A DNA stretch of 32,676 bases from an uncultured Methanosarcinales archaeon (GCA_964535955.1 CAZHVK010000016.1:1-32676), one strand, 5' to 3'; positions 592 to 32,676 are shown, numbered from the stretch's first letter. The notes: generated from the letters alone by a model not told the origin. Made by a program: numbers and translations.

Positions 592-954
592 ATGAAAACA
601 AAACCAATTGCAATATTATTAATAATATTTTCAACTTTTATTACAGCTACTGCTCAGTTCTTTCTAAAGATAGGCGCTGATAAACTATCACCAAACATAA
701 TTCAAATAATCACAAACTATTCTTTAATAACAGGCTTAGTTTTGTATGCAATCGGAGCAGTTATCTTGATATTTGCATTGAAGAATGGTGAACTTAGTGT
801 TCTTTTTCCCATTTACTCAACAAGTTTTATTTGGGTAATTCTTATTTCATATTTTTATTTTCATGAAATAATCAATACATGGAAGATCTTAGGAATAATA
901 TTCATAATAGGTGGTGTTAGTTATATTGGAATTGGATCAAAGGTGAAATCATGA
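592..954 (+). CDS. Small DMT/EamA (SMR/ArnE-F-like) 4-TM transporter subunit
   Basis: 120 aa, four hydrophobic helices, AQFFLKIG, ALKNGELSVLFPI, FHEII...GIIFIIGGV. Confidence 0.85.
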   Translation: MKTKPIAILLIIFSTFITATAQFFLKIGADKLSPNIIQIITNYSLITGLVLYAIGAVILIFALKNGELSVLFPIYSTSFIWVILISYFYFHEIINTWKILGIIFIIGGVSYIGIGSKVKS

Positions 955-1298
955 ATCTGTTATTAGCATCAATTATTGTAATAATTGGAAACTTTATAGC
1001 CGCTTTTGGTAGTTTATTTCTTAAAAAAGGTTCTAAAGAGTTTTCATTAAACCCATTCAAACTAATCAAAAACTATCAGATAATTAGTGGAATTATGTTT
1101 TATGCAATTGCAGCAATCATGTTTATAATTGCATTAAAAAACAACCCATTATCAATATTATATCCATTAGTATCAACTCAGTATATATGGGTTGCTTTTT
1201 TCTCAGTAAAATTCTTAGGAGAAAGAATGAATTCTATGAAATGGATGGGTATTATAAGTATAATACTAGGCATTGTATGTATAGGAATTGGAAGCTAA
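951..1298 (+). CDS. Second small DMT/EamA subunit, likely heterodimer partner
   Basis: Paralogous to the preceding gene (LFLKKG, LSILYPL, FLGERM..KWMGI); ATGA overlap. Confidence 0.85.
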   Translation: MNLLLASIIVIIGNFIAAFGSLFLKKGSKEFSLNPFKLIKNYQIISGIMFYAIAAIMFIIALKNNPLSILYPLVSTQYIWVAFFSVKFLGERMNSMKWMGIISIILGIVCIGIGS

Positions 1299-5760: not shown

Positions 5761-6972
5761 TCACTGCTTCTTCTTAACACCAATCTTTATCTTAAAATAC
5801 TTCTTTGGTATAAATAAATAAACAACAAACCAAGCACCAAGCAATATAGTACAAATAATACCAAACATGAATATTGCTTGTAATAATGTAAATGCATCAA
5901 TCATATAACCAAATACAGGACCAATTAAAGCAAAGCTAATTCTGTAGACCAAGCTTCTGATTGACAATACAGTTGCTCTTTTATCAGCAAATGTATATTC
6001 TAATATTGCATGGTTAAGTATTGGGTTAAGCAGACCTCTTACTAATTGGTGAAATAATATGAACAAAAACCCTAATTTGACTGCAAAGAATGGCAGTGTG
6101 AAGTATGGAATTATTATGAATAGTGATATGATTATCAGTGAATTGAATCTTCCAAATGTATTTTCAAACCTGTCACTAAGTGTTGAACCAAGTGCTGCAA
6201 AAATATTAAATATCACAAATATAAAACCAAATTGATAAACTTCCCACCCAGACATTATTAAAAAAGGCTGATAAACCCAAAACATGATGTGCGAACCAAA
6301 TGCTAAAGCTGTAAATACAACATACCATCTGATAAGTTTATGTTTTGAAACAAATTTAAAAGATTGAAAAATAAGCTCCCAGTATTTAGGTTTTTTTACT
6401 TGCATAAAATGTTGTGGTTCTTTAAACCAAAAACTAAATATAAAACAGCATGCCATTGGAATTGCACTGTAAATCATTGCATATCTTAATTTTATTGCAC
6501 CAATAAATGCTCCTATTAATGCACCTAGTCCTGCAAAAATCATTAACAATGCCTTTGCCCTTCCTTCATGCTTTTTAAATTCATTTTCTCTTTTTAATAT
6601 TTTCAATGTGTCAAATAATAATGCTGAGTCTGCTCCTGATATTAATGACAAACCCATTGCCCATGTAAGTTCTGCAATCATAAAATGATAAAATGAAAAA
6701 GCTGAACCATAAACTATTGCTCCTAAAACTAAAGATCCGCTTCCATATATCAAACTTTGTCTTCTTCCTATCTTGTCTGCAACAGCACCTGTTGGCACTT
6801 CTAACAAGACAATGCATATGGAAAAAAAAGACTGTAAGATCATGATCTGTGTAAAACTTAAACCATTTTCTTGTAAAAATAAAACAATGATCGGTGCAAA
6901 GAACAAGAGCTCTCTAAATGCATTAAATACATAATATTTCCAGATGTTTGATTTGTAGTCTGATGCTTTCAT
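5761..6972 (-). CDS. MFS transporter
   Basis: LEVPTGAVADKIGRR (MFS motif A), SGADSALLFD, about 12 TM segments. Confidence 0.92.
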   Translation of the reverse strand: MKASDYKSNIWKYYVFNAFRELLFFAPIIVLFLQENGLSFTQIMILQSFFSICIVLLEVPTGAVADKIGRRQSLIYGSGSLVLGAIVYGSAFSFYHFMIAELTWAMGLSLISGADSALLFDTLKILKRENEFKKHEGRAKALLMIFAGLGALIGAFIGAIKLRYAMIYSAIPMACCFIFSFWFKEPQHFMQVKKPKYWELIFQSFKFVSKHKLIRWYVVFTALAFGSHIMFWVYQPFLIMSGWEVYQFGFIFVIFNIFAALGSTLSDRFENTFGRFNSLIIISLFIIIPYFTLPFFAVKLGFLFILFHQLVRGLLNPILNHAILEYTFADKRATVLSIRSLVYRISFALIGPVFGYMIDAFTLLQAIFMFGIICTILLGAWFVVYLFIPKKYFKIKIGVKKKQ

Positions 6973-19154: not shown

Positions 19155-19916
19155 TTACCAATAAATACCTTTTTCTCTTAACATTGATTTCTTATAAAAG
19201 ATTTCATCTTTACAATCAAGACACAACCAAGACTCATTATCAAAGATTAATGCAGCTTGTTCATCTATACTTCTTGCATCTTTAACATTTACTTGTTCCA
19301 TAAGGCAAGCTCCTTCTTCACCATTACAATGTCCTCTCTTATATCCACTTTTACCAATATTAAAGTTTCTATTAACAAGATCAAGATTATGACCAAACTC
19401 ATGCGCAGCAATAATTGCTAAACTCTTTTGTCTTAACACAGGATCTCTTATCCACTTCATAAACCTGTTTACAGAAACAATATTATTAGGATAAGGCCCA
19501 TAACCAAATAAAAATCTATTTTTAGTATCACCTTCAACAGTTGTTAAATCTTTATCAATAACAATTACATCAAAGTGAGGCTCTGTTTTTTGATAAGGAT
19601 CATTTCTTAACAATGCATCAAGATCATATGCACTAACTTGTTTTCCAAATTTATCTTTTTTATTAGTCAAAGCTTGTTCCTGATACCAATCAGCAGAACC
19701 AAAAGCATTATTATTCCAAACATAATTATCAAGATCAACAAGTTTTATCTGTCTTCCTGTCTCAACTACAATCTTTTCAAAACCATATTTAATAGCATTA
19801 TATTCTTTATCTAGAACACCACTAGTCCTACAAAGATGTAGTACAGATCTAATTATACCTTGCCTATAGTCTTTCATATATGCACGATTTCTATGAAAAT
19901 ATCTTCTTGATTCCAT
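19155..19916 (-). CDS. Archaemetzincin-like Zn-dependent protease
   Basis: AAHEFGHNLDL ... GHC ... CLM ... LCLDC. Confidence 0.7.
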   Translation of the reverse strand: MESRRYFHRNRAYMKDYRQGIIRSVLHLCRTSGVLDKEYNAIKYGFEKIVVETGRQIKLVDLDNYVWNNNAFGSADWYQEQALTNKKDKFGKQVSAYDLDALLRNDPYQKTEPHFDVIVIDKDLTTVEGDTKNRFLFGYGPYPNNIVSVNRFMKWIRDPVLRQKSLAIIAAHEFGHNLDLVNRNFNIGKSGYKRGHCNGEEGACLMEQVNVKDARSIDEQAALIFDNESWLCLDCKDEIFYKKSMLREKGIYW

Positions 19917-20356: not shown

Positions 20357-21783
20357 CAACCAAAAAAGATTATTCTCTTGCTCAACAACTTAGGCAATGG
20401 CAATGATTCATATGGCATGTCTTTACATTTCTCATTAATCATTTGTTTTAACTCATCAAAAGACATTGAAACCTTGCTTCCACTAAACCTATCATTAACC
20501 ATTAGATTACCAGATTCAATCTCTTTATCACCAACAACAACAATGTAAGGCACCCAATCTTTGCCAGCTTTTGCAATCTTTTTACCTAAACTATCATCAC
20601 TATCATCTATCTCTACTCTAACATTTCCAAATTCTAGTTTTTGACAATATTCAAGATGTTTTTCAGATACTGGTATTAATCTTATCTGTGATGGTGATAC
20701 CCACAATGGTAAAACAGGTTTTTCTCTTTTCAAAGCTTCTTCTAGTATTGAATACATCCATCTTTCAATTGAACCAATACTTGAATGACATATGATGCAA
20801 CCTTTTTTTTCACCATCCTGATCAACATAATTAATACCATAAACTTTAGCATCTTTTATGTCAAGTTGCACAGTTGACAATTGCAAATTACCATTAACAC
20901 TGTCAATACCTTGGAACTCATGTTTCACAACCCAATAATGTTTCATGTCTGACAAAAGCTCGATAAACACAGGCTTGTTAGAATACCTTGCCAATTCTAA
21001 TATCTTATCTTTGTGATCTTTATAGAATTGGTCAACTATCCTAAAACCAATAGCATACTTGACACCAACACCATCTGCAAGATCAGCATAATTTTTATAC
21101 AGGTACTGATACTCTTTCCAACCTTGGTCTAAGTCTTTGCAAAAACAATGTATATCAGGCATATGAAATGCACGCAATCGTTTAAAACCAGAGAGTTCAC
21201 CACTTTTCTCATATCTAAAACTTTTTGAAAATTCATAAACCCTGATTGGCAGCATTTTATAACTAAATTTAGCTTGTTTCATTATCTTGAACAAGCCAAA
21301 GTCACCTGCAAACCTTAGTATAAATTCCTTACTAGGGTTATCAGGCACCTTTACCATATAATGCCTTTCATGAAATGATCCTGCTTGCGCTCTGATCTCT
21401 TTATCAGCCCAATCATAGATCAATGGTGAATCTATCTGTATTGCATTCATTCTATCAACAGCAATATACCTGGCCCATTTCTTTAATAAACTAAAGATCA
21501 TATGTCCTTTTGGATATAATCTAAAGTTTCCAGAGTCACTTGCTGGTTCATATCCTACTAGCTCATGCTTTTGCATTGCTTTGATTGATGGTGGTTCTTG
21601 CTTTGGTTGTCCTTTGACTTCTTCTGACAAAACATATGCTTTTAATTCTTTGTCACCTATCTTATCCAAGATCTCTTTAATCTTATCAACATCTTCAAGA
21701 TCCAAAACAATCTCTTTTCCATCTGGCATTAACACTAGATATTTGCTTTTAATTGATTTTACAATTTGTTCTCGATTTTTCAT
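20356..21783 (-). CDS. thrS: Threonyl-tRNA synthetase, archaeal type, lacking the N-terminal editing domain
   Basis: YEPASDSGNFRLYPKG, SFRYEKSGEL..RLRAFHMPDIH, STVQLD, HSSIGSIER, LPLWVSPSQIR, WVPYIVVVGDKE. Confidence 0.95.
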   Translation of the reverse strand: MKNREQIVKSIKSKYLVLMPDGKEIVLDLEDVDKIKEILDKIGDKELKAYVLSEEVKGQPKQEPPSIKAMQKHELVGYEPASDSGNFRLYPKGHMIFSLLKKWARYIAVDRMNAIQIDSPLIYDWADKEIRAQAGSFHERHYMVKVPDNPSKEFILRFAGDFGLFKIMKQAKFSYKMLPIRVYEFSKSFRYEKSGELSGFKRLRAFHMPDIHCFCKDLDQGWKEYQYLYKNYADLADGVGVKYAIGFRIVDQFYKDHKDKILELARYSNKPVFIELLSDMKHYWVVKHEFQGIDSVNGNLQLSTVQLDIKDAKVYGINYVDQDGEKKGCIICHSSIGSIERWMYSILEEALKREKPVLPLWVSPSQIRLIPVSEKHLEYCQKLEFGNVRVEIDDSDDSLGKKIAKAGKDWVPYIVVVGDKEIESGNLMVNDRFSGSKVSMSFDELKQMINEKCKDMPYESLPLPKLLSKRIIFFG

Positions 21784-21825
21784 TTTTCATTTCCTCCCTG
21801 TTTAGAGCCCAGGCGGCTATTATTA

Positions 21826-21947
21826 AAGCACTGGTGTAACCCGCCAATTGGCTAGTGAGCCAAGGTTATTCATCGTCAGAATACCTTGGTGCTCTATTTG
21901 GCATATCAGCACATTAGAGCAGGCGAACGAGGGTTGCACCAGTGCTT
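21826..21947 (+). repeat. Structured element, long form, copy A
   Basis: 17-bp terminal stem (21826-42/21931-47), GCC-AATT-GGC hairpin, AGTGAG (21854-59), two internal stems, CGAACGA (21924-30). Confidence 0.8.
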
Positions 21948-22172
21948 ATTAGTTTTGTAGTTAAAAGTCTTAACCAAGAACAATCATATCCCAGAATCAT
22001 CTATAAGGTTACCAACCCCAGACAAAGCAAGGACAATAATCACATAAAATAGTTAAGAAACAATGACTGCTTATGCAGTAATAGATAGGGTAAGAGCTAG
22101 AGAAATCATATACATGTTTTGTTTTATGTTTATTCTATTCATAATACCACAATATTATATACGCAATACTAA

Positions 22173-22187
22173 TATATAAACCTTTCG
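22173..22187 (-). promoter_or_regulatory. BRE-TATA promoter facing thrS
   Basis: Minus strand CGAAAGG-TTTATATA. Confidence 0.6.
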
Positions 22188-22247
22188 GTTGTCACCACAA
22201 CAAAGTACTCAACAAATTTAATAAACCCTCCTCATATAAACAGATAT

Positions 22248-23051
22248 ATGAAGTTTAATATAAAGAAAACAATGAATCCTAATACAAAACATTATTCTCA
22301 TAAAGATATGGAGTTAGCAAGAGAATTTGCTAAAAACATGTACAAAGAATTTTCATTTTTCTTAAAAGCAGTTATTATATTTGGCAGTGCTGCAAGAGGA
22401 CAAGAAAGAGGTAGTGGTGATGTTGATATCATGATTGTTGTTGATGATGTTTCAACATTACTTTCACCTGAAATAGTTGAAACATACAGGATTATCACAG
22501 AAAAAATAATAGGAAAAGTTTCAACAAGACTTCATGTTATCACACTAAAATTAACAGCATTCTGGGATTATATAAGAAACAGTGACCCTGTTGCAGTTAA
22601 CATACTTAGAGATGGTGTTGCACTTATAGATACTGGGTTTTTTGAACCATTGCAAGCTTTATTACAGCGTGGAAGAATAAGACCAACAGGAGAAGCAGTT
22701 TGGGCATACTTTTCAAGAGCACCAAGAACATTAACAAATTCTAGATGGCATCTTTCCCAAGCAACTATTGACCTGTACTGGGCTGTTATTGATTCTGCAC
22801 ATGCTGCTCTGATGAAGCACAATGTTATTCCACCTTCACCAAGCCATGTTGCTAACATGATGATAGAAACATTAGTCAAAAAAAAACTTGTAAAAAAGAA
22901 ATATGCAGACACAATGAACTTTTTCTACAGACTGATGAAACAAATAACACACAGAGAAATAAAATTCATATCAGGGCACCAGTATGAAAAATACAGAGCA
23001 CAAGCAGAAGACTTTGTCAAAACAATGAGAAAGATTGTTGAATCTAAATAG
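22248..23051 (+). CDS. Minimal nucleotidyltransferase (MNT)-HEPN fusion protein
   Basis: IIFGSAARG...GDVDIMIVVDD, then HEPN-like DLYWAVIDSAHAALM..PPSPSH. Confidence 0.82.
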   Translation: MKFNIKKTMNPNTKHYSHKDMELAREFAKNMYKEFSFFLKAVIIFGSAARGQERGSGDVDIMIVVDDVSTLLSPEIVETYRIITEKIIGKVSTRLHVITLKLTAFWDYIRNSDPVAVNILRDGVALIDTGFFEPLQALLQRGRIRPTGEAVWAYFSRAPRTLTNSRWHLSQATIDLYWAVIDSAHAALMKHNVIPPSPSHVANMMIETLVKKKLVKKKYADTMNFFYRLMKQITHREIKFISGHQYEKYRAQAEDFVKTMRKIVESK

Positions 23052-23131
23052 TCATCACACATAAGTAGTTCTTTCCCACAATATTTATATATAGATAGGG
23101 CTTTCCCTATATATAATTAGGGGGATGAATA

Positions 23132-25318
23132 ATGAAAAAACAATTACCAACATGGATTGATATTGCTGTAAAAACATTGCTAGACATGCCTGAACAATTA
23201 GGTGAATTATATGAATCTGCTCAGAATATTAATTCTAAAACAGATTATGAAAATCTGGAATCAAAGATTCTTGATAATGAATTTGTTGAAGGCACTGTAT
23301 TAAGAAAACCAAAGCAAGACATTGATCCATTTGTTGCTAATCTTTGTAATTATGCAAGAATAATCAAGAAAAATAACAGAAGAAAACTATTATGGCAAAA
23401 AGCACAAGCAAAATTTGGAATCACTAATGTATATGATTTTGAACAAAAAACCAATTATCTAGGTAAAAAGAAATTAAATTCATCTACTTATTGTACTTGT
23501 GGAAGAAAATTAACCAAAGAAGGATATGAAATAACACACATTGATGATTCTTCAATTTCACAGACAATTGGTGTAAAATGTTTCCAAGGACTGTATCAAG
23601 AGTTTAAAGAAGTTCTTCAGATGGATGAATACTATGAAAATCTTGGTAAGCAAGAAATTGCTAGACAAATAAGAGAAAATTCTAAAGTATTAAGAAAAGA
23701 AAAACCAGACTTTAAAAAAGATGAAAAAAAATTACAAGAGATATTAGATGATAAAGAAAATCTTGAAAATATTCTTGATCAAGTAAAGAAAATGATTAAA
23801 GATAAAAACAAAGAACAAAAGATATCATCTGAAACAATTGCAAAATATATCTTAACATTAAGAAGCATGGATTCACCTGGAAATCTTTCTGTTCTAATGC
23901 CGGATTTTGAACCAAATGGTAATTTATTTCAATCAATGTATAAAAGAAAAGACCTAGATTCAAGATCAAGAGATATTCTATCAAGAATTGCTTCACCATA
24001 TGGCAAAGTCACTGATGCAGAGATAGTAAGATTAGCATTTATTGAAGCTTTGTACACAAGAATTCCTACAAGTATCTTTATTGAAAGGTTTAGAGACTTA
24101 TTATACTGGGAACAGAATAAAGAATTAGACGAAACTCAGGTAAAATGTTTATCATTGATCAAAGAACACTTGTTTGATGAAAAAGAACTTGATTTAGATA
24201 AATTTAAACAAGGACTTAAAAAATATAAAAAACAGCATGTAACATTTGACTGGCTTGTACAAACTCAGTTCATAATGGGAGACATTATTGAAAAAAGGAA
24301 AAAAGAAAATTTAGAATATATGAATAAAATTCAAACACAAAAAGGTCAAGTATTAAAGATAATAAAGAGTGTTACAGATTTATTAGAAAAAGAAAGCTTT
24401 GACAAATTATCAGACAAAGAAAGAGAATATTGTTCAGAACTTTTCAAAGGAAGAAAAAGAATGATCTCAACAATGCATAATAATTATTCTGCTAATTATG
24501 AAAAAAACAGATTATTCAATGTTGAATCAAAAGAATATGCTGAAAATGTTTTATCTGTATACTCTGTTGACCAAACAATAGATTTTATTGATAATGTATG
24601 TGACATAAATGCAAAAATATTGTCTAGAAGATTCATAGATAAATATGAAACAAAGTTTAACCAAAAACAAGAAAACCACCTTACTCTTTTTGGAGAACAG
24701 TACAATTTACCTAAATCCTGTAGACAAAATCTTTTTGAAGAGTTTATAAAAACACAATGTATAACTTCTTTAGATGAATTAGTCATAGGTTTCCAAAAAA
24801 TAATGGAAAAAATGGTCTATTACAAAGATAAACAAGTAATAGAAAAAGCTAAAAAAGGTGCAAAATTCACTTATTTTTCTGTTGATAAAGACAAAAAAAT
24901 TGTTAGAAGATGGAACTTATGGACAAATAGTTTAGGTAGGTTCTTTGATTTTCAGTTAGGAATGTTGAATTCTGAAAACAAGATAAGACTAAGACCACAG
25001 TATAAAAAACCACAAGACCTGCTTTGTGATAAAGAAAGTAGAGATGTGTATAAATGGTTAGAGGAGAATCCTGATAAGAGGGTACCTGTATTCAGAATAA
25101 ATGGATGGAACAAACCTGTATTAGAAAAAAATGAACTTTTAAAAACTTATATTGAAAAAGGAAAATTAGCACCTTATGTAAAACCATTCAAGCTCCATAA
25201 TTTTATTAGAATGAAGAAACAAGAGATTGATAGAAGATTACAGACTTATTATAATCGAAATATCGAGCATAATGAATCAACAGAAATAAAATTAACAATA
25301 TTTAAAAAAAAGAAATAG
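23132..25318 (+). CDS. Large hypothetical protein with a putative Zn-binding motif
   Basis: 728 aa; CTCGRKL..YEITH...IGVKC; GGGGA SD-like site upstream. Confidence 0.75.
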   Translation: MKKQLPTWIDIAVKTLLDMPEQLGELYESAQNINSKTDYENLESKILDNEFVEGTVLRKPKQDIDPFVANLCNYARIIKKNNRRKLLWQKAQAKFGITNVYDFEQKTNYLGKKKLNSSTYCTCGRKLTKEGYEITHIDDSSISQTIGVKCFQGLYQEFKEVLQMDEYYENLGKQEIARQIRENSKVLRKEKPDFKKDEKKLQEILDDKENLENILDQVKKMIKDKNKEQKISSETIAKYILTLRSMDSPGNLSVLMPDFEPNGNLFQSMYKRKDLDSRSRDILSRIASPYGKVTDAEIVRLAFIEALYTRIPTSIFIERFRDLLYWEQNKELDETQVKCLSLIKEHLFDEKELDLDKFKQGLKKYKKQHVTFDWLVQTQFIMGDIIEKRKKENLEYMNKIQTQKGQVLKIIKSVTDLLEKESFDKLSDKEREYCSELFKGRKRMISTMHNNYSANYEKNRLFNVESKEYAENVLSVYSVDQTIDFIDNVCDINAKILSRRFIDKYETKFNQKQENHLTLFGEQYNLPKSCRQNLFEEFIKTQCITSLDELVIGFQKIMEKMVYYKDKQVIEKAKKGAKFTYFSVDKDKKIVRRWNLWTNSLGRFFDFQLGMLNSENKIRLRPQYKKPQDLLCDKESRDVYKWLEENPDKRVPVFRINGWNKPVLEKNELLKTYIEKGKLAPYVKPFKLHNFIRMKKQEIDRRLQTYYNRNIEHNESTEIKLTIFKKKK

Positions 25319-25325
25319 GTGAAAG

Positions 25326-25892
25326 ATGAGTTTTGAAAACCAGAAGAAAGTATTTTTAAATAAAGATGATAAGAGTAAAAAAGGAGGCATAGATGATAGG
25401 ATTCTGCCACTTGTCACCCTAATCAATTCTAAAGAAGAATATTATACTACTTCGTCTTGTTCTGGCCGTATTCTTGTTTTTAGTTTTGGTGAGAGGAAAA
25501 ATGAATGTAAATGGTTATTTGTGAGCCATGATAAGGTTGATAAAAAGAGCAACCTACTTAACAATATAGATCTAAACAACCAAACAAGCGAGACATATTT
25601 TGGCATGCAAGGTGCAATCATACATGTCTGCTGCAAAGACTTAGGTTGTGCAAAAACATTACTTGATCTAGGCAAAAGTGCAGGATTCAAAATAGGCGGC
25701 ATAATCTCAATTGAGCCAAAGATCATAGTAGAACTAAGAAGTGTTGATTTTTTAGAAACAATTATTGCTAAAGGTGAGAAGTTATTGATTGATGAGAATT
25801 ATATACAGGTTTTGATTAAGGAAGCTAATTCTAAATTAGAAAGAACATGGAAAAGAGTTAGTAAATTATCTGATGAAATAGAAAAAATATAA
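25326..25892 (+). CDS. taw3: tRNA wybutosine-pathway methyltransferase Taw3/Tyw3
   Basis: DKSKKGGID..I..L...IN...YYTTSSCSGRI, WLFVSH, IIHVCC, AGFK..G, IVELRS. Confidence 0.92.
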   Translation: MSFENQKKVFLNKDDKSKKGGIDDRILPLVTLINSKEEYYTTSSCSGRILVFSFGERKNECKWLFVSHDKVDKKSNLLNNIDLNNQTSETYFGMQGAIIHVCCKDLGCAKTLLDLGKSAGFKIGGIISIEPKIIVELRSVDFLETIIAKGEKLLIDENYIQVLIKEANSKLERTWKRVSKLSDEIEKI

Positions 25893-25916
25893 AAAAAATA
25901 AGTGAAACACTTATTC
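25883..25916 (-). terminator. Hairpin plus T-tract between convergent genes
   Basis: AATAAGTG-AAA-CACTTATT (25898-25916) overlaps the stop of the minus-strand ORF and is followed by T runs on the minus strand. Confidence 0.55.
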
Positions 25917-26084
25917 TGTCATTGCTATTAAGATTGTTAATAATCCAATTCCAATAACAACTAGTCCAAATGCTCCTTTAAATAAGACCCATAATGCTGG
26001 ATACCACCATGCATAAGATACAGCACCTAGTACAATCAGAACCAAACCAATCAAAATTTTAATGAATTTTGCTAATCCTCCCAT
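25911..26084 (-). CDS. 57-aa two-TM membrane protein
   Basis: Manual translation MGGLAKFIKILIGLVLIVLGAVSYAWWYPALWVLFKGAFGLVVIGIGLLTILIAMTE; GGAGG SD and TTTATAA box upstream. Confidence 0.8.
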   Translation of the reverse strand: MGGLAKFIKILIGLVLIVLGAVSYAWWYPALWVLFKGAFGLVVIGIGLLTILIAMTE

Positions 26085-26298
26085 ATATATCCCTCCAAAT
26101 TTTTATTATTGTGATATACTCATTTGAAAATAGTTTTATTTATAAATATTTATTGAGTTTAATATATGGGTTATAAAATAAGTATTGATTTTAACCAAAA
26201 GATTTAAAAAGAGTAGTTTATTGCTCAATATTGTTAAATAGTACTAGAAGTAAAGTTTGATCTTTCTTCTTTGTATTATTGATTAGGAGGTTAAAAAC

Positions 26299-26658
26299 AT
26301 GGAAGGAACTGTTAAATGGTACAACAGAAAAAAAGGCTTTGGATTTATCATAGGCGAAGACAATGTTGAATACTTTGTGCATTACACAGGATTGACACAA
26401 GGAACATTTATTCGAGACAATGATAAAGTTGGCTTTGATGCTGTTGAAACAGAAAAAGGTAAACAAGCACAAAATGTTGTTCTACTGCAAAAAGCAAGTG
26501 AAATGGCTCAAGGCGGAGCACCACAAGAATCATTTGGTGAAGAAGAACCAAAAGAAGAATTTGGTCAAGAACCAGCAGAAGAACAAAAAGAAGAAGCAGC
26601 TGCTGAACAACCAGAAGAGCAAAAAGAAGAACAACCAGAAGAAGCAAAACAAGAGTAA
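26299..26658 (+). CDS. Cold-shock domain protein with acidic C-terminal tail
   Basis: GTVKWYNRKKGFGFI, YFVHYT, GKQAQNV; GGAGG SD. Confidence 0.95.
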   Translation: MEGTVKWYNRKKGFGFIIGEDNVEYFVHYTGLTQGTFIRDNDKVGFDAVETEKGKQAQNVVLLQKASEMAQGGAPQESFGEEEPKEEFGQEPAEEQKEEAAAEQPEEQKEEQPEEAKQE

Positions 26659-26725
26659 AAGTAAGAATAATAATTTCTTATTATCTTGGGGTTTTTTTTG
26701 TTTTTATTTTTTTGATTTTGATAAT

Positions 26726-27229
26726 TTACACACCTTTCTGCTTACCAAACTTACCCCTATACTTAGCTTTGCCCTCTGTTCTACAGAAAATGATCTGACA
26801 AATCTTAACACCAGCATGTAATTTAACAGGCATTTCACCTAAATTCTTTATCTCAAGTACTTGAACATTGTTAATATTAGGCTGCACAAAATTAGCAGTT
26901 ACATGAACAGCCAGACCTAAACGAGCAAACCTGCTTCTACCAGAAAGAAAACCGCAAACATTTCCAGGCAATTTGATCTTTTCTTTTGTCACACCAAGGA
27001 TAAATTCACCAGGATTTATAACATGCGATTTTGCAGTAAACAGCTTTGTATGCTTTTTATAATTGGTTCTTTCTTTGATATCAATGATCTTATCACATTT
27101 AAACTCTCTAAACTTATTATCCAATGTAAGGTCATAAGAAGCTCCACCTAGGTTCTTCTTAGAAAAAGGAGTAATTTTAATTCTACCAAGATAAATTTCT
27201 TTTAAAACCTCTTTTTTTGTTAATATCAT
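26726..27229 (-). CDS. dcd: dCTP deaminase (trimeric dUTPase superfamily)
   Basis: ASYDLTL, PGEFILG.T.E, GRSRFARLGL, LEIKN, KICQIIF, YRGKF..Q. Confidence 0.88.
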   Translation of the reverse strand: MILTKKEVLKEIYLGRIKITPFSKKNLGGASYDLTLDNKFREFKCDKIIDIKERTNYKKHTKLFTAKSHVINPGEFILGVTKEKIKLPGNVCGFLSGRSRFARLGLAVHVTANFVQPNINNVQVLEIKNLGEMPVKLHAGVKICQIIFCRTEGKAKYRGKFGKQKGV

Positions 27230-27291
27230 AAATTATCCACCTATTTATATATAATTTTGATGTATTACTATTTAATTCTTTTGTATAAATG

Positions 27292-27401
27292 TATGTGCAT
27301 AGTGTCTGTAAGACCAGTGAGTACCTTGCAGATTGTACAACTGTCAGGGCTTTCTATTAAAAGTTATTGTACTTAGAAAGTACGAACGAACTATGCACAT
27401 A
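27292..27401 (+). repeat. Structured element, long form, copy B
   Basis: 12-bp perfect terminal IR TATGTGCATAGT/ACTATGCACATA, GTC-TGTAA-GAC, AGTGAGTA, two stems, TACGAACGA; flanked by TGTATAAAT direct repeats. Confidence 0.88.
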
Positions 27402-27428
27402 TGTATAAATAATGCCAAAACCAAAACA

Positions 27429-27467
27429 TTTATATATAACCTTTACTATTTTTAATAAATATTAAAA
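27429..27467 (+). promoter_or_regulatory. TATA box with downstream inverted repeat (candidate operator of the GbsR/MarR regulator)
   Basis: TTTATATA at 27429-36; TTTTAATA-AA-TATTAAAA at 27450-67. Confidence 0.45.
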
Positions 27468-27520
27468 GTAATGAAAGTATTGAATATACTAAAAGTTAAA
27501 TTAATATACAAAAATCCAAA

Positions 27521-27982
27521 ATGAGTCAAATAGACCAACAATTCATAGAATTTTATCAGAATATTGGTAGGTCGCAAGGTTTCAATGACAGTTTATTGAC
27601 CACCATAATGGCTATGCTCTTTTTAGAGCCAAAAGATGTAGCAATGGATGATCTGGCAAAAAAGACTGGTTACAGCCTTGCATCTATCAGCAATAAAGTA
27701 AAGATGCTAGAAGCCATAGGTTTTGTCAAAAGAAAAAGCAAGCCAGGTACAAGAAAGGTGTTTCTATATGCTGAAAAGGATTTTTTAAAAGTCTTTAAAC
27801 AAGCTTTAGTAAAAAAACAAGAAAATGTGATTAACCTTGCTAAAACAAGACTTCCTGAAATAGTAAAACAAAACAAATCAGGTGATAAACAAAAAATAAA
27901 AATGATTGAAAACTATTATAATCAAATGTTAAAACTAGAAAAAGCTATACAACATTTTATAGTGGAGATTGATAAGATATGA
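27521..27982 (+). CDS. GbsR/MarR-family winged-helix regulator
   Basis: MDDLAKKTGYSLASISNKVKMLE..GFV...KPGTRKVF.YAEKD. Confidence 0.88.
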   Translation: MSQIDQQFIEFYQNIGRSQGFNDSLLTTIMAMLFLEPKDVAMDDLAKKTGYSLASISNKVKMLEAIGFVKRKSKPGTRKVFLYAEKDFLKVFKQALVKKQENVINLAKTRLPEIVKQNKSGDKQKIKMIENYYNQMLKLEKAIQHFIVEIDKI

Positions 27983-28668
27983 AAAGACCAATAATCGAAC
28001 TGAGGCAAGTATGGAAAATTTACAAAATGGGTGAAGTAGAGGTCCCTGCAGTTAGAGGTCTTAATTTGCAAGTCAAAAGAGGAGAATTTGTAGCAATACA
28101 AGGTCCAAGTGGCTCAGGCAAATCTACTTGTGTAAACATGGTTGGTTGTTTAGACATACCTACACAAGGCGAAATATTCCTCGAACATCACAATATTGCT
28201 CATCTAGAAGAATCAGAACTAGCACAAATCAGAGGAAAAAAAATAGGATTCATATTCCAACAATTTAATTTAATCCCAAGCCTAACAGCTCTAGAAAATG
28301 TTATGCTTCCTATGATGTTTCAAAAAACAACAAAACATCACAGAAAACAAAGAGCAACCAAACTATTGAATATGGTTGGTCTAAGTGAAAGAATGCATCA
28401 TAAACCAACAGAATTATCTGGTGGACAACAGCAAAGGGTTGCGATCGCAAGGTCTCTAGCAAATGACCCAGAAGTAATACTTGCAGATGAACCAACTGGA
28501 AATCTTGACTCAAAAACAGGAGAAGAGATGATATATTTCCTAAAAAAATTAAACAAAGAAAAAGGAAAAACAATTGTTATGGTCACTCATGATGATAAGT
28601 TAGCTAAACAAGCTGACAGAATCGAGTTTTTAAAAGATGGATTAATTGTTGAAAAAAAAACAAGATAA
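27979..28668 (+). CDS. ABC transporter ATP-binding protein (LolD/MacB type)
   Basis: [46 protein letters not shown]. Confidence 0.96.
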
Positions 28669-28697
28669 AATAAAAAAATAAAATGTGGTGGTAAAAA

Positions 28698-29957
28698 ATG
28701 ATTAAAAAAAAGAATATAAAAATAAAAAAAATCTTATTATTTGTATTAGTTGTAATAACATTAGCTGTGGCTGTTAGTTTAAGCAGTGCAAGGGTTAATA
28801 ACGAGGAAAATATTCAAATATCCTTAGTAAGCCAGTCTCCTTTTCCTGTTGAGCCAGGTAATACTATGGATGTAAGGGTAAGTGTTGAGAACACAGGAGG
28901 TGATCCTGCCAAAGATTTCATGATTGAGATGATTGATGACAACACATTTTCATTAATTGATGAAGCCAATAGAATTAGAAAAATAAGCAGTCTAATTTCA
29001 GGAGGCAATTATGCTATTAAATACAAATATACAGTTAAAGTTGATGAAGATGCTGTTGAAGGAACAAAAAAATTAAAATTAAGATTTAAATACAACAATC
29101 ATGAATGGACAACTATTGAATTAAACATTGATATACAATCATCAGATGCAATTGTCTGGATAAAAGAAGTAAAAACAGAGCCAGAGATTGTTGCACATGG
29201 TGAAAAAGCAATATTAAAATTCACATTAAAAAACATAGCAGATTCATTATTAAAAGATGTTAGTATTGATCTAGACCTTGCATCAGCAACTTTGCCAATT
29301 TCACCACTTAATACAGGCAGTGAAAGAAAGATTAAATCAATAAAAGCAGGTGCTGAAGAAGAAATTAGTTTTGAGATAGTAGCACTTACAACAGCAGATT
29401 CAAAAATACACAAAGTTCCTTTGACTTTATCTTATCAAGATGAGATAGGAATGAATTATACTAAAAAAGATGTTGTAAGTATAATTGTTTCATCAAAGCC
29501 AGACCTAAGTTATTATGTTGATGACACAGACATACTGCTATCAGGTACAAATGGAAAAGCAACTGTTAAAATTGTTAACAAAGGTTCAGAAGATATTAAA
29601 TTTGTAAACATAAAATTAAAAGATGACAATGATTTTGAAAAATTATCAAATGAAGAAATTTATGTTGGAAATATTGACTCAGATGATTATGAAACAGCAG
29701 ATTTTGATATATATGTTAAAAAGAAGGTGTCAGATCTTAAACTTCCAATGATAATAGAATACAGAGATTCTATAAACAGAGAATATAAAGATGAAGTAGA
29801 CCTACCATTAAAACTTTATAATGCAAAAGATGCTAAAAAATATAATTTGATCCAAGCAAATGGTATTACTGGCTGGATTGTTATGATTGTTATTATTGGT
29901 GTGGGATATTTTATTTATAGAAGATACAAGAAAAAGAAGAAGAAACATAGGAAATAA
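28698..29957 (+). CDS. COG1361-like S-layer/Ig-fold membrane-anchored protein
   Basis: Signal peptide, P.PVEPG repeats of beta-rich domains, YVGNIDSDDYETADF, C-terminal TM and basic tail; typical position in this operon type. Confidence 0.8.
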   Translation: MIKKKNIKIKKILLFVLVVITLAVAVSLSSARVNNEENIQISLVSQSPFPVEPGNTMDVRVSVENTGGDPAKDFMIEMIDDNTFSLIDEANRIRKISSLISGGNYAIKYKYTVKVDEDAVEGTKKLKLRFKYNNHEWTTIELNIDIQSSDAIVWIKEVKTEPEIVAHGEKAILKFTLKNIADSLLKDVSIDLDLASATLPISPLNTGSERKIKSIKAGAEEEISFEIVALTTADSKIHKVPLTLSYQDEIGMNYTKKDVVSIIVSSKPDLSYYVDDTDILLSGTNGKATVKIVNKGSEDIKFVNIKLKDDNDFEKLSNEEIYVGNIDSDDYETADFDIYVKKKVSDLKLPMIIEYRDSINREYKDEVDLPLKLYNAKDAKKYNLIQANGITGWIVMIVIIGVGYFIYRRYKKKKKKHRK

Positions 29958-29975
29958 ATCAAAACAAAATGAACA

Positions 29976-31202
29976 ATGGTTGCTACAGATTATTTTATTT
30001 TTATTTTGAAAGGTTTGATTAGACGTAAACTTAGAAGTTGGCTTACTGTAATTGGAATCTTTATCGGAATTGCAGCAGTTGTTTCTTTGATTGGTTTAGG
30101 AGAAGGTTTAAGAGAATCTATTAATGCTCAGTTTGGATTTGTAGGAGCAGATGTTATGGTTGTTACTGCAAGTGGTGGACTTGGTCCTCCTGGTACAGGT
30201 GTTGTTGATCCATTAACAGAAAAAGAAATCAAAGCAATAAAGACTATTCCTGGTGTTGAAGGAGTTACAGGAAGAATAATTGAATCTGGAAAAATTGTTT
30301 ATAATAATAAAGCTGGTTTTGGTTTTGCTGCCAGCATGCCTAGTGGTGAAGGCAGAGAATTAGTACAAGATGTTCTTAACATGAAAGCTATAAAAGGCAG
30401 ATTTCTTAAAGATGGTGATTCAGGTGTTGTTTTCTTAGGATATGCATTTTATGAAGATGATGAAGCTTTTGGTAAAATAATTGATGTCAGCTCAAAAATC
30501 AAAATATTAGATAAAGAATTCAAAGTTATAGGAATTCAAGAAAAAAAAGGAAACTTCCAATTTGATGGAGCAGTATTTATGAATGAAGATGATTTAAGAG
30601 ATTTAGTTGATAGGCAAGGTGATGATTATGACTTAGTTCCTGTAAAATTCAATACAAATCTTGATGTTAGCAAGATACAAGCAGACATTGAAAAAAAATT
30701 AAGAAAAGTAAGAGATGTTGATATAGGTGAAGAAGACTTTTCAGTACAAACACCTGCTTCTGTTATTGAAAATGTAAATAATACATTACTTGGTGTCCAA
30801 ATATTTATTTATATAATTGCAAGCATATCATTATTAGTAGGAGGAATTGGAATAATGAACACTATGTATACATCTGTTGTTGAAAGAACAAAAGAGATTG
30901 GTATAATGAAATCAATAGGTGCAAAGAATGGGACAATATTTACATTATTTTTTGTAGAATCTGGTTTACTTGGATCTGTTGGAGGCATTGTTGGTGCAAT
31001 TATGGGTTATATTGGTGCAACATTATTAGCTTATATTGGAAGCATTGCACTTGGATCTGATCTTATAAGTGCTCATATATCTTGGCAATTATTTATTGGT
31101 GCAATATTTTTTTCATTTGTTGTTGGTTCATTTTTTGGAACAATGCCTGCTTATAAAGCATCTAAACTTCACCCAGTGGATGCTTTGAGGTACGCGAAGT
31201 GA
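29976..31202 (+). CDS. ABC transporter permease (MacB/FtsX family)
   Basis: RKLRSWLTVIGIFIG, GGIGIMNTMYTSVVERTKEIGIMKSIGA, PAYKASKLHPVDALRY. Confidence 0.95.
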   Translation: MVATDYFIFILKGLIRRKLRSWLTVIGIFIGIAAVVSLIGLGEGLRESINAQFGFVGADVMVVTASGGLGPPGTGVVDPLTEKEIKAIKTIPGVEGVTGRIIESGKIVYNNKAGFGFAASMPSGEGRELVQDVLNMKAIKGRFLKDGDSGVVFLGYAFYEDDEAFGKIIDVSSKIKILDKEFKVIGIQEKKGNFQFDGAVFMNEDDLRDLVDRQGDDYDLVPVKFNTNLDVSKIQADIEKKLRKVRDVDIGEEDFSVQTPASVIENVNNTLLGVQIFIYIIASISLLVGGIGIMNTMYTSVVERTKEIGIMKSIGAKNGTIFTLFFVESGLLGSVGGIVGAIMGYIGATLLAYIGSIALGSDLISAHISWQLFIGAIFFSFVVGSFFGTMPAYKASKLHPVDALRYAK

Positions 31203-31278
31203 TATTGATAGTCTCGTACCTTAAAGCTACGAACGAAATGCAATGTAGTGAGTATACTTTGAGGTACGCAAAGTGATA
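31182..31278 (+). repeat. Structured element, short target-matched form, copy D
   Basis: Gene end (31182-204), inverted copy CGTACCTTAAAGC (31215-27), core TACGAACGA-N10-AGTGAGTA (31228-54), direct copy 21/22 identical (31257-78). Confidence 0.88.
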
Positions 31279-31280
31279 GA

Positions 31281-31385
31281 GTGCATGGTTCGTTCGTACT
31301 TTCCATTCTTAGCAAGAAGCACATGGAAAGGCCTGATAGTTTTACAACCTGTTAGGTACTCACTGGTCTTACAGACACCATGCAC
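31281..31385 (-). repeat. Structured element, long form, copy C (inverted relative to B)
   Basis: Reverse complement aligns to copy B, with compensatory changes in the terminal stem and the CTTTC stem. Confidence 0.88.
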
Positions 31386-31403: not shown

Positions 31404-32624
31404 ATGATATTAGACATATTAATATATTCAATAAAGAATTTATTTAACAGAAGACTTAGAAGTTTTCTTAGTATATTGTCTATTTTAATAGGTGTAACTG
31501 CAATCTATGCATTAATCAGTTTTGGTCAAGGAATAAACTCTTATATGGATGGATTTGCACAAGAGATGGGAACAGATAAAGTATTTTTAATGCCTGGTGG
31601 AGGTATTACAAATGCTCCAGGAACAAGTAATATTTTGTTTTCTGAAGATGACTTGGATTTTATTAGAAAGATAAAAGGAGTTGATGAAGCAAGCGGAATG
31701 ATGATCACAACAGGAAAAGTAAAGTACAAAGATTATAAAGAAAAATATCCTTTTATAATGGGAATGTCTACTGAGGTAAAAGAAAAAAAATTAATAGAGG
31801 AAATGTTTGCTGGGATAGAGGTTATACAAGGAAGATCTTTAAAAAAAGGAGATACATTAAAAGCAACTGCAGGATATTCTTATATTATTCAAGATAGAAT
31901 GTTTAAAAAAAAAATTTCTATAGGAGATAAAATCGAAATAAATGATGTAACTGTAGAAATAGTAGGATTTTATGAAGAAGTTGGAAACCCAACAGATGAT
32001 TCAAATGTTTATTTATCCAAAGAAGGATTCAAACAGATATTTGATATTGAAGATTATGAATATATTTATGTAAGGACTGTTTTTGATCAGAATCCTACAG
32101 ATGTAGCTGAAAAAATAAAAGAAAAATTCAGAAAACATAGAAATCAAAAAGAAGGTGAAGAAGATTTCACAGTACAGACTTTTGAAGATATGATGGCAAT
32201 ATTTTCTAATATAATTCTTGTTCTAAATGGAGTCTTAGTAATAATAGCTCTGATCTCAGTAGTTGTAGCAGCTATTAACATAACAAATACTATGTATACT
32301 TCAATTTTAGAAAGAACGCAAGAGATTGGTGTGATGAAAGCAATTGGTGCTAAAAATAAATACATTTTGATTATATTTGTTATAGAATCAGGACTTCTTG
32401 GACTTTTAGGAGGTTTGGTAGGCATTGGTCTTGGCTATGCAATTGCTAAATTAGGAGGTATGATAGCTGCAATGAATGGTCTTTCAATGCTAAGACCAGG
32501 ATTTCCTTGGTGGTTGACTGTTGGTTGTTTATTGTTTGCATTTGGTGTTGGTGCTGGAGCAGGTTATTTTCCAGCTAGGCAAGCTAGTAAGATGCAAGCA
32601 ACAGATGCTTTGAGATGGGAATGA
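31404..32624 (+). CDS. Second ABC transporter permease (MacB/FtsX family)
   Basis: RRLRSFLSILSILIG, NTMYTSILERTQEIGVMKAIGA, PARQASKM...DALRWE. Confidence 0.95.
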   Translation: MILDILIYSIKNLFNRRLRSFLSILSILIGVTAIYALISFGQGINSYMDGFAQEMGTDKVFLMPGGGITNAPGTSNILFSEDDLDFIRKIKGVDEASGMMITTGKVKYKDYKEKYPFIMGMSTEVKEKKLIEEMFAGIEVIQGRSLKKGDTLKATAGYSYIIQDRMFKKKISIGDKIEINDVTVEIVGFYEEVGNPTDDSNVYLSKEGFKQIFDIEDYEYIYVRTVFDQNPTDVAEKIKEKFRKHRNQKEGEEDFTVQTFEDMMAIFSNIILVLNGVLVIIALISVVVAAINITNTMYTSILERTQEIGVMKAIGAKNKYILIIFVIESGLLGLLGGLVGIGLGYAIAKLGGMIAAMNGLSMLRPGFPWWLTVGCLLFAFGVGAGAGYFPARQASKMQATDALRWE

Positions 32625-32676
32625 AACGAGCATCTTAAAGCTACGAACGAAACAAAGTGTAGTGAGTATGCTTTGA
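32605..32676 (+). repeat. Structured element, short target-matched form, copy E (cut by the window end)
   Basis: Gene end GCTTTGAGATG (32607-17), inverted copy CATCTTAAAGC (32631-41), core TACGAACGA-N10-AGTGAGTA (32642-68), direct copy ATGCTTTGA (32668-76). Confidence 0.85.

Follow-up and report, generated by a model that had tools for sequence, protein, structure and literature searches.

We analysed a 32,676-nt stretch of DNA from an uncultured Methanosarcinales archaeon (GCA_964535955.1, CAZHVK010000016.1:1-32676; hereafter the window) and found in it five copies, elements A to E, of a small non-coding repeat built around two invariant strings, AGTGAG and CGAACGA. Tentatively, we interpret them as members of a new family of mobile elements that may be selected as folded single strands, probably RNA, with the invariant core as the putative functional site. 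An invariant junction, helices free to change, indifference to how the strands are connected, copies that are old yet maintained, and insertion footprints that vary in length together fit a mobile element selected in this form.

Elements A, B and C share one fold, referred to here as type 1. It runs from the terminal stem P1 through a 3-bp hairpin (P2) to AGUGAG, continues with the hairpins P4 and P5, and passes through CGAACGA to the return strand of P1. The minimum free energy of element A is -59.6 kcal/mol (z -7.8), and its predicted fold is exactly the proposed four-helix junction, with both core strings unpaired. The G+C content (GC) of the elements is 0.37-0.49, vs 0.29-0.34 in their 500-nt flanks. 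The two core strings were located by separate motif searches and then paired computationally. CGAACGA was found five times in the window; shuffled sequences contain it 0.02 times on average, and none of 100 shuffles reached five. AGTGAG by itself is unenriched (seven matches vs 11.7 expected), and five of its seven sites have a same-strand CGAACGA at a distance of 10-64 nt. All five cores fall within the last 11 kb of the window, spanning 10.7 kb.

Additional copies were obtained by scanning 185,579 species-representative genomes with a pattern that contains 20 fixed bases from B and C and is hence biased to B-type elements. The scan returned five loci, L001 to L005. L002 and L005, from one archaeal metagenome-assembled genome (MAG), and L003, from another, have the full type-1 architecture and lie in loci with a GC of 0.27-0.30, similar to that of the window (about 30%). 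L004 (Shouchella) was treated as a chance match, as its stems are absent and the sequence around it is ordinary; L001 is described below.

A covariance model, an approach that the sequence-only reading of this DNA had proposed, was trained on B, C, L002, L003 and L005, the five copies of B-type, with A left out, and was run with filters off over 79,236 nt, giving 25 matches at E ≤ 10, of which six were kept at E ≤ 1e-5 and 19 dropped. The training copies score 104-123 bits (B 122.6, C 106). Element A, outside the training set, was found at 44.9 bits (E 3e-9), with every pair of P1, P2 and P5 made by different bases. No type-1 copy beyond these six appeared in the 79,236 nt, the next match (16.4 bits) being the reverse strand of B. 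In the alignment of the six copies, standard pairs occupy 93.3% of 150 cells, vs 22-41% in controls with the partner shifted 1-3 columns along, and 18 of the 25 modelled pairs show double-sided changes; none of 500 shuffles matches any of the five measures. Specifically, both sides have changed in 11 of 12 P1 pairs and in four of seven P5 pairs, the latter with 100% of cells paired, while one of the three P2 pairs covaries (U-A in three copies, C-G in three) and the remaining two are invariant. The alignment was fitted to the model's own structure, which favours pairing; the independent part of this evidence is the result for A.

B and C, which belong to one genome, are 76% identical, and copies from different MAGs are equally close (B-L003 76%, C-L003 77%). 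Identity between A and the B-type copies is 43-48%, falling to about 30% in unpaired non-core columns, and all 13 core bases are the same in A and the B-type copies. That B and C are no closer than copies from different MAGs, together with the invariant core, argues for constraint on core and pairing and against a recent burst of copying. The P1 sequence is common to four of the six type-1 copies (four of the five B-type copies) and is unrelated in A and L005. On the given strand, three G.U wobbles vs one A.C occur among the 150 modelled cells, and additional G.U pairs are found at the base of P5 in four copies and in P5 of D and E. This asymmetry shows that one strand matters; RNA and single-stranded DNA are indistinguishable by wobbles.

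The sequence-only reading had assigned A, B and C to one architecture, had pointed to compensatory changes between B and C and to unrelated stems in A, and had concluded that structure rather than sequence is conserved, in elements richer in GC than their surroundings. The sequences read as it described, the compensatory changes and the unrelated stems of A are as it stated, and the detection of A by a B-type model upholds the conclusion. Its count of five cores in about 11 kb is right for CGAACGA; however, D and E lack the architecture of A, B and C. It had not seen that two of the cores are permutations placed on gene 3' ends, that relatives exist elsewhere, including one bacterium, or that the terminal stem is unconserved across subfamilies.

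In the permuted elements D and E the order of the core strings is reversed, with CGAACGA 10 nt ahead of AGTGAG. Each element overlaps the 3' end of an open reading frame (ORF), 29976-31202 for D and 31404-32624 for E, and the two ORFs encode paralogous MacB/FtsX-type permeases. D and E consist, in order, of P5, TA-CGAACGA, a mini-hairpin of 10 nt, AGTGAG-TAT and a second copy of the gene end; the final codons of the permease gene make up the 5' strand of P5, whose loop contains the stop codon. RNAalifold on D and E gives a common 11-bp P5 with a G.U pair and two compensatory pairs, as well as one compensatory pair in the mini-hairpin (mini-P1). The core is drawn as UAC/GUA, a 2x2 G.A loop and AC/GU, and single-sequence folds concur. 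C and D together fill the spacer between the two permease genes of one operon, to which C is antisense. As candidate origins of the inverted gene-end copies in D and E we consider a guide-like arm, post-insertion selection favouring a stable P5, or co-evolution in place. A diversity-generating retroelement was tried for D, where the second gene-end copy has A at both positions at which the first has G, and was rejected: the repeat has just 23 nt and two differences, no reverse transcriptase was found among the ORFs scanned, and the target would be the tail of a permease.

A further permuted form is present in L001, in an Actinomycetaceae MAG with a GC of 0.55. At positions 5945-6124 of this locus, an 86-nt unit occurs in 2.1 tandem copies in the spacer between tRNA-Glu and tRNA-Asp of a Glu-Asp-Phe tRNA cluster, and the array begins 3-4 nt inside the 3' end of tRNA-Glu. 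The unit reads GUA-CGAACGA, a perfect 7-bp P1 hairpin, UU-AGUGAG-UAC and one long hairpin, the outer 3' strand of which is the repeated flank. P1 is thus placed exactly between CGAACGA and AGUGAG, and the module folds as in the other forms. The GC of the unit is 0.42 vs 0.54 in the host region, which suggests a foreign or constrained origin.

Several copies carry flanking repeats. The 9-bp repeat around B is a probable target-site duplication. L003 is flanked by a 15-bp direct repeat (0 of 2000 shuffles), which can alternatively be read as 10 bp, and L002 by a marginal 6-bp repeat (20 of 2000 shuffles); the repeat is 23 nt at D and 11-12 nt at L001. By eye, neither B nor L003 shows complementarity to its flanking repeats. 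The genomic contexts are varied: the gaps that hold A and B separate divergent genes, C and L002 run antisense between co-directional genes, and D, E, L005 and L001 are in sense just 3' of a gene. The copies thus occur in both orientations, beside unrelated housekeeping genes. Among the 42 window ORFs and 28 locus ORFs scanned, no transposase, integrase, HUH enzyme or reverse transcriptase was found.

Searches against known families returned little. Rfam 15 at the gathering threshold gave no match over the whole window and only four tRNAs in L001, L002, L003 and L005. At E ≤ 10 nothing matched A to E, and the L001 tandem, which offers every circular permutation, had only a 13.6-bit chance match to a snoRNA. 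With B and the L001 unit as blastn queries, the phage and plasmid collections yielded only a 35-nt chance match (E 0.9). In the portions available to us of the literature on the core strings, on new ribozyme classes, on DPANN, transposable elements of the miniature inverted-repeat kind (MITEs) and structured RNA, and on archaeal MITEs with compensatory change, the motif is not described; a 2026 bioRxiv ribozyme survey, as far as its accessible part goes, deals mainly with human ribozymes. These results agree with the sequence-only reading, which had called the elements uncharacterised and had found no mobilising enzyme in the window. Its hedged inference, of a structured motif that is MITE-like or like repetitive extragenic palindromic (REP) elements, or else a candidate ncRNA or ribozyme, also stands up, the structured part on strong covariation and the MITE-like part on flanking repeats that are significant in two of the six type-1 copies and marginal in a third. 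The coordinates of all elements and repeats in the window are collected in Table 1.

Table 1. Positions of the five elements, their parts and the direct repeats of B, in window coordinates.
Feature	Position	Strand	Parts and remarks
Element A, type 1	21826-21947	+	P1 21826-21842 with 21931-21947 (17 bp, one U.G)
Element A, inner parts		+	P2 hairpin 21843-21852; AGTGAG 21854-21859; P4 hairpin 21860-21889; P5 hairpin 21890-21921; CGAACGA 21924-21930
Element B, type 1	27292-27401	+	P1 27292-27303 with 27390-27401
Element B, inner parts		+	P2 27304-27314; AGTGAG 27316-27321; P4 region 27322-27349; P5 27350-27380; CGAACGA 27383-27389
Direct repeat of B, upstream copy	27282-27290	.	9 bp, TGTATAAAT; 2 of 2000 shuffles as long in the same position
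Direct repeat of B, downstream copy	27402-27410	.	9 bp
Element C, type 1	31281-31385	-	P1 31385-31377 with 31289-31281; AGTGAG 31364-31359; CGAACGA 31296-31290
Element D, permuted	31182-31278	+	P5 31212-31227 with last 7 codons and stop of ORF 29976-31202 (T, 31182-31204); stop codon in loop
Element D, inner parts		+	TA; CGAACGA 31230-31236; 2-bp mini-hairpin 31237-31246; AGTGAG 31247-31252; TAT
Element D, second gene-end copy (T2)	31256-31278	+	21 of 23 positions match T; own hairpin
Element E, permuted	32607-32676	+	runs into window end; gene end 32607-32624 pairs with 32630-32641 (P5)
Element E, inner parts		+	CGAACGA 32644-32650; mini-hairpin 32651-32660; AGTGAG 32661-32666
Element E, second gene-end copy	32670-32676	+	first 7 nt only; window ends there

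The P4 loop of the B-type copies (27331-27345 in B; also C, L002, L003 and L005) contains a conserved TTGTAAAAC-like string, which is absent from A and which in B is the 8-nt palindrome TTGTACAA. Strings resembling it (ATTGTAC, GTAAGAC) recur in the L001 unit.

According to the reading that we tentatively favour, the family would consist of small (about 50-120 nt) non-coding mobile repeats whose selected form is a folded single strand, most likely RNA produced by read-through from neighbouring genes. The functional part would be an invariant purine-rich module, (Y)AGUGAG facing CGAACGA. One way to draw it is as an irregular helix of short length that comprises, in order, a closing UA/UA or CC/GG, a C-G pair, tandem G.A/A.G, an A-U followed by a C-G pair, and one more G.A. 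It would be placed with P1 on one side and a helix or branch distal to it (P4, P5) on the other, to which archaeal type-1 elements add the conserved 3-bp side hairpin P2, and the helices would act as scaffolds, free to change while pairing holds. It appears indifferent to strand connectivity, occurring with P1 open (A, B and C), with P1 closed (D, E and the L001 tandem unit) or with a helix strand supplied by the host flank. The module may be the site of a processing or mobilising step, carried out by a trans factor encoded elsewhere or by the RNA's own chemistry. New copies could arise via a single-stranded, possibly circular or multimeric, intermediate; its insertion at staggered breaks would duplicate the target over a variable length.

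Several observations weigh against this interpretation and keep it tentative. The instances total ten, six of type 1 and four permuted, which is a small sample, and the bacterial occurrence is a single locus. The pattern that retrieved the three additional archaeal loci holds the core constant, and core invariance outside the window is therefore partly a matter of ascertainment. P4 is poorly supported, with 72% of its cells paired. As to mobility, flanking direct repeats are lacking in three of the six type-1 copies (A, C and L005), the repeats of B and L003 can both be read as 9-10 bp and would then suit an ordinary DDE transposase, and no candidate mobilising or binding protein was found among the window and locus ORFs. 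As to the choice of RNA over single-stranded DNA, hairpins of DNA likewise tolerate G.T wobbles.

Part of this evidence would suit an ordinary DNA-level MITE or a single-stranded-DNA hairpin element, moved by a transposase acting in trans, with P1 as its terminal inverted repeat and the core within the enzyme's binding site. We regard this as unlikely. Terminal inverted repeats do exist, the elements are multicopy, intergenic and found in either orientation, and the shared P1 and repeats of about 9-10 bp mean that a MITE accounts for the B-type subfamily. It does not account for A and L005, in which P1 is wholly different while the interior or core stays, a pattern that a transposase reading terminal repeats does not predict; this lack of conservation in the terminal stem across subfamilies argues against an ordinary transposase-recognised MITE. 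Nor does it account for the compensatory changes in the internal hairpins P2 and P5 or for the permutations, and the repeats at D and L001 misfit a single staggered-cut length. No transposase was found among the window and locus ORFs scanned, and elements of the HUH/IS200 type are not known to leave a target duplication.

A rather improbable explanation is that the family is a small ribozyme of a new class, able to cleave or ligate itself, with the invariant junction as its active site, which spread in the manner of hammerhead or twister and cuts tandem or read-through transcripts to unit length. About 13 invariant junction nucleotides amid freely covarying helices, natural circular permutations, a tandem array that could be co-transcribed with tRNAs, occurrence in archaea and one bacterium, and the absence of an associated protein gene in the regions scanned are all consistent with it. 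Additionally, the UGAG/CGAA tandem G.A beside a helix resembles the stem-II side of the hammerhead core. However, catalysis is predicted only, and it is not possible to name a cleavage site. P2 is missing from the permuted forms, and P1 of D and E is just 2 bp, so that the part common to all forms is one internal loop, which offers little for a catalytic fold. Models of known ribozymes give no match at E ≤ 10, even on the naturally permuted tandem, and many motifs with similar traits have turned out to be non-catalytic.

Rather doubtful, too, is the view that the repeat is a cis-acting RNA element used by the host to bind protein or to stabilise or process transcripts, comparable to REP or ERIC, now largely immobile and kept at gene ends. 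The four copies that lie in sense directly 3' of genes suit it, as do the co-evolution of D and E with two diverged paralogous gene ends and the structure kept between same-genome copies as old as their 76% identity implies. Against it, C and L002 are antisense to their flanking genes, A and B lie between divergent genes with B upstream of a likely promoter, the intact duplications at B and L003 indicate recent insertion, and no binding protein can be named.

The boldest reading is also quite unlikely, namely that AGUGAG/CGAACGA forms the active site of small ribozymes of a new class, which cut or join RNA, or both, and drive a retrozyme-like, RNA-mediated mobile element of prokaryotes. RNAs of unit length (50-120 nt), possibly circular, would return to DNA by copying. 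Such a route would account for the circular permutations, for the array in tandem behind a tRNA gene and for target duplications that vary in length. The insertion site would be picked by base-pairing of an element arm with the target; D, E and L001 fit such pairing, as in these copies the flanking gene end gives one strand of the core-adjacent helix. Finally, a riboswitch or other 5'-leader regulator is very improbable: A and B do lie upstream of plus-strand genes, and an invariant junction with variable helices is aptamer-like, but the class and orientation of the downstream gene are inconsistent, C, D, E, L002 and L005 are outside leaders, B ends 120 nt before the next start codon, and no Rfam riboswitch matches.

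Individual known motifs were also compared with the elements and rejected. A hammerhead has three helices around a CUGANGA ... GAAA core with an unpaired cleavage nucleotide; here the junction strands are (Y)AGUGA and GAACGA, 0 nt separate P1 from P2, and no hammerhead model matches at E ≤ 10. In a kink-turn, a 3-nt bulge is followed by G.A and A.G pairs, and the opposite GA abuts a Watson-Crick C-stem. The tandem G.A is present here, but Watson-Crick pairs lie on both sides of it in every drawing, there is no 3-nt bulge, and the nucleotides 5' of AGU are unable to pair with those 3' of GA. REP/REPIN elements are palindromes of 20-40 nt with a conserved GTAG head and a gene for a REP-associated tyrosine transposase (RAYT); GTAG is absent from both strands of all six type-1 elements, and no Y1/HUH transposase domain was found in the ORFs scanned. 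The integron attC consensus places R'' (RYYYAAC) and R' (GTTRRRY) at the two ends, and neither box stands at an end in any of nine elements on either strand, with one internal chance match in C. The bulge-helix-bulge of archaeal introns has two 3-nt bulges on opposite strands with a 4-bp helix between them. Here, the unpaired UGA and GAA triplets face each other beside a GUAC/GUAC helix, forming a 3x3 loop instead of a 4-bp offset, and the motif is present in a bacterium as well. The unrelated P1 of A and L005 speaks against a MITE of DDE transposons defined by sequence-conserved terminal inverted repeats. A tRNA-like origin was dismissed on ARAGORN, which found 0 tRNA genes in the window, and on the Rfam tRNA model, which does not match the elements. 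A riboswitch recognised by constant leader position was dismissed on orientation and neighbour genes, which differ at every copy.

The window encodes the archaeal markers TYW3 and Trm1 amid ordinary housekeeping genes. The minimum of the cumulative GC skew, at 21000-23000, coincides with the position of element A, and from 22248 to the window end all long ORFs are on the plus strand. The skew minimum and strand change near A could reflect a replication-related switch or merely gene orientation; no orc1/cdc6-like domain was seen among the window ORFs scanned. Four further observations concern genes. A 728-aa ORF (23132-25318, +) directly 3' of a gene with a nucleotidyltransferase domain and a 253-aa ORF (19155-19916, -) with a zinc-protease-like HEFGH motif and several Cys downstream both lack a Pfam match at E ≤ 0.001. 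Adjacent overlapping half-size ORFs at 592-954 and 951-1298 (+), with one EamA domain each, represent either a split gene or a two-gene small drug/metabolite transporter. The ORF at 26299-26658 (+) encodes a cold-shock-domain protein with a long acidic C-terminal tail rich in E, Q and P.

If real and functional, the family would represent a new class of structured RNA or folded single strand, found in archaea with small genomes and having one bacterial relative or more. A junction that stays invariant, helices that vary freely, naturally occurring permutations and a strand borrowed from the 3' end of a host gene are unusual among prokaryotic repeats, and these traits make the family a concrete candidate for a new small ribozyme or for RNA- or single-strand-mediated mobility in prokaryotes, both of which are rarely testable from sequence alone. 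Even as a merely selfish repeat it would matter for annotation, as it fills the spacers of an ABC-transporter operon and overlaps two stop codons.

Among known systems, integron attC sites are likewise conserved in structure over sequence, consist of a stem, an unpaired central bubble, a second stem and a variable branched tip, and lie at the 3' ends of ORFs. Here, in contrast, the bubble is the conserved part, flanking duplications are carried, and there is no integrase or cassette array. ERIC, Correia and REP/REPIN elements are short, non-coding, palindromic and richer in GC than their surroundings. Like the present elements, they are scattered between genes in both orientations and show occasional target duplications and compensatory changes; they are transcribed by read-through, as is probable for the present family. 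The present family differs from them in a terminal repeat that varies by subfamily, an invariant 13-nt internal junction, permuted forms and flanking repeats of 9 to 23 nt, and it has no GTAG at its ends and no RAYT or other transposase nearby. Eukaryotic retrozymes and ribozyme-bearing retroelements resembling short interspersed nuclear elements (SINEs) share with it small non-autonomous repeats based on structured RNA, target duplications and tandem or multimeric copies, and a circular RNA intermediate of the retrozyme type would explain the permutations. In our case there is no hammerhead motif and no reverse transcriptase in view; we know of no retrozyme-like elements in prokaryotes, and none was found in the literature searched. 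With regard to the hammerhead, the rest of its core (CUGA, together with a cleavage nucleotide left unpaired where two stems meet) is absent here, and CGA is added 3'. With regard to hammerhead and twister together, the side hairpin is missing in our permuted forms and catalysis is a prediction. The family nevertheless resembles both ribozymes in its few invariant junction nucleotides amid covarying helices, its natural permutations, its presence in more than one domain of life and its multicopy or tandem units, which need no linked protein gene.

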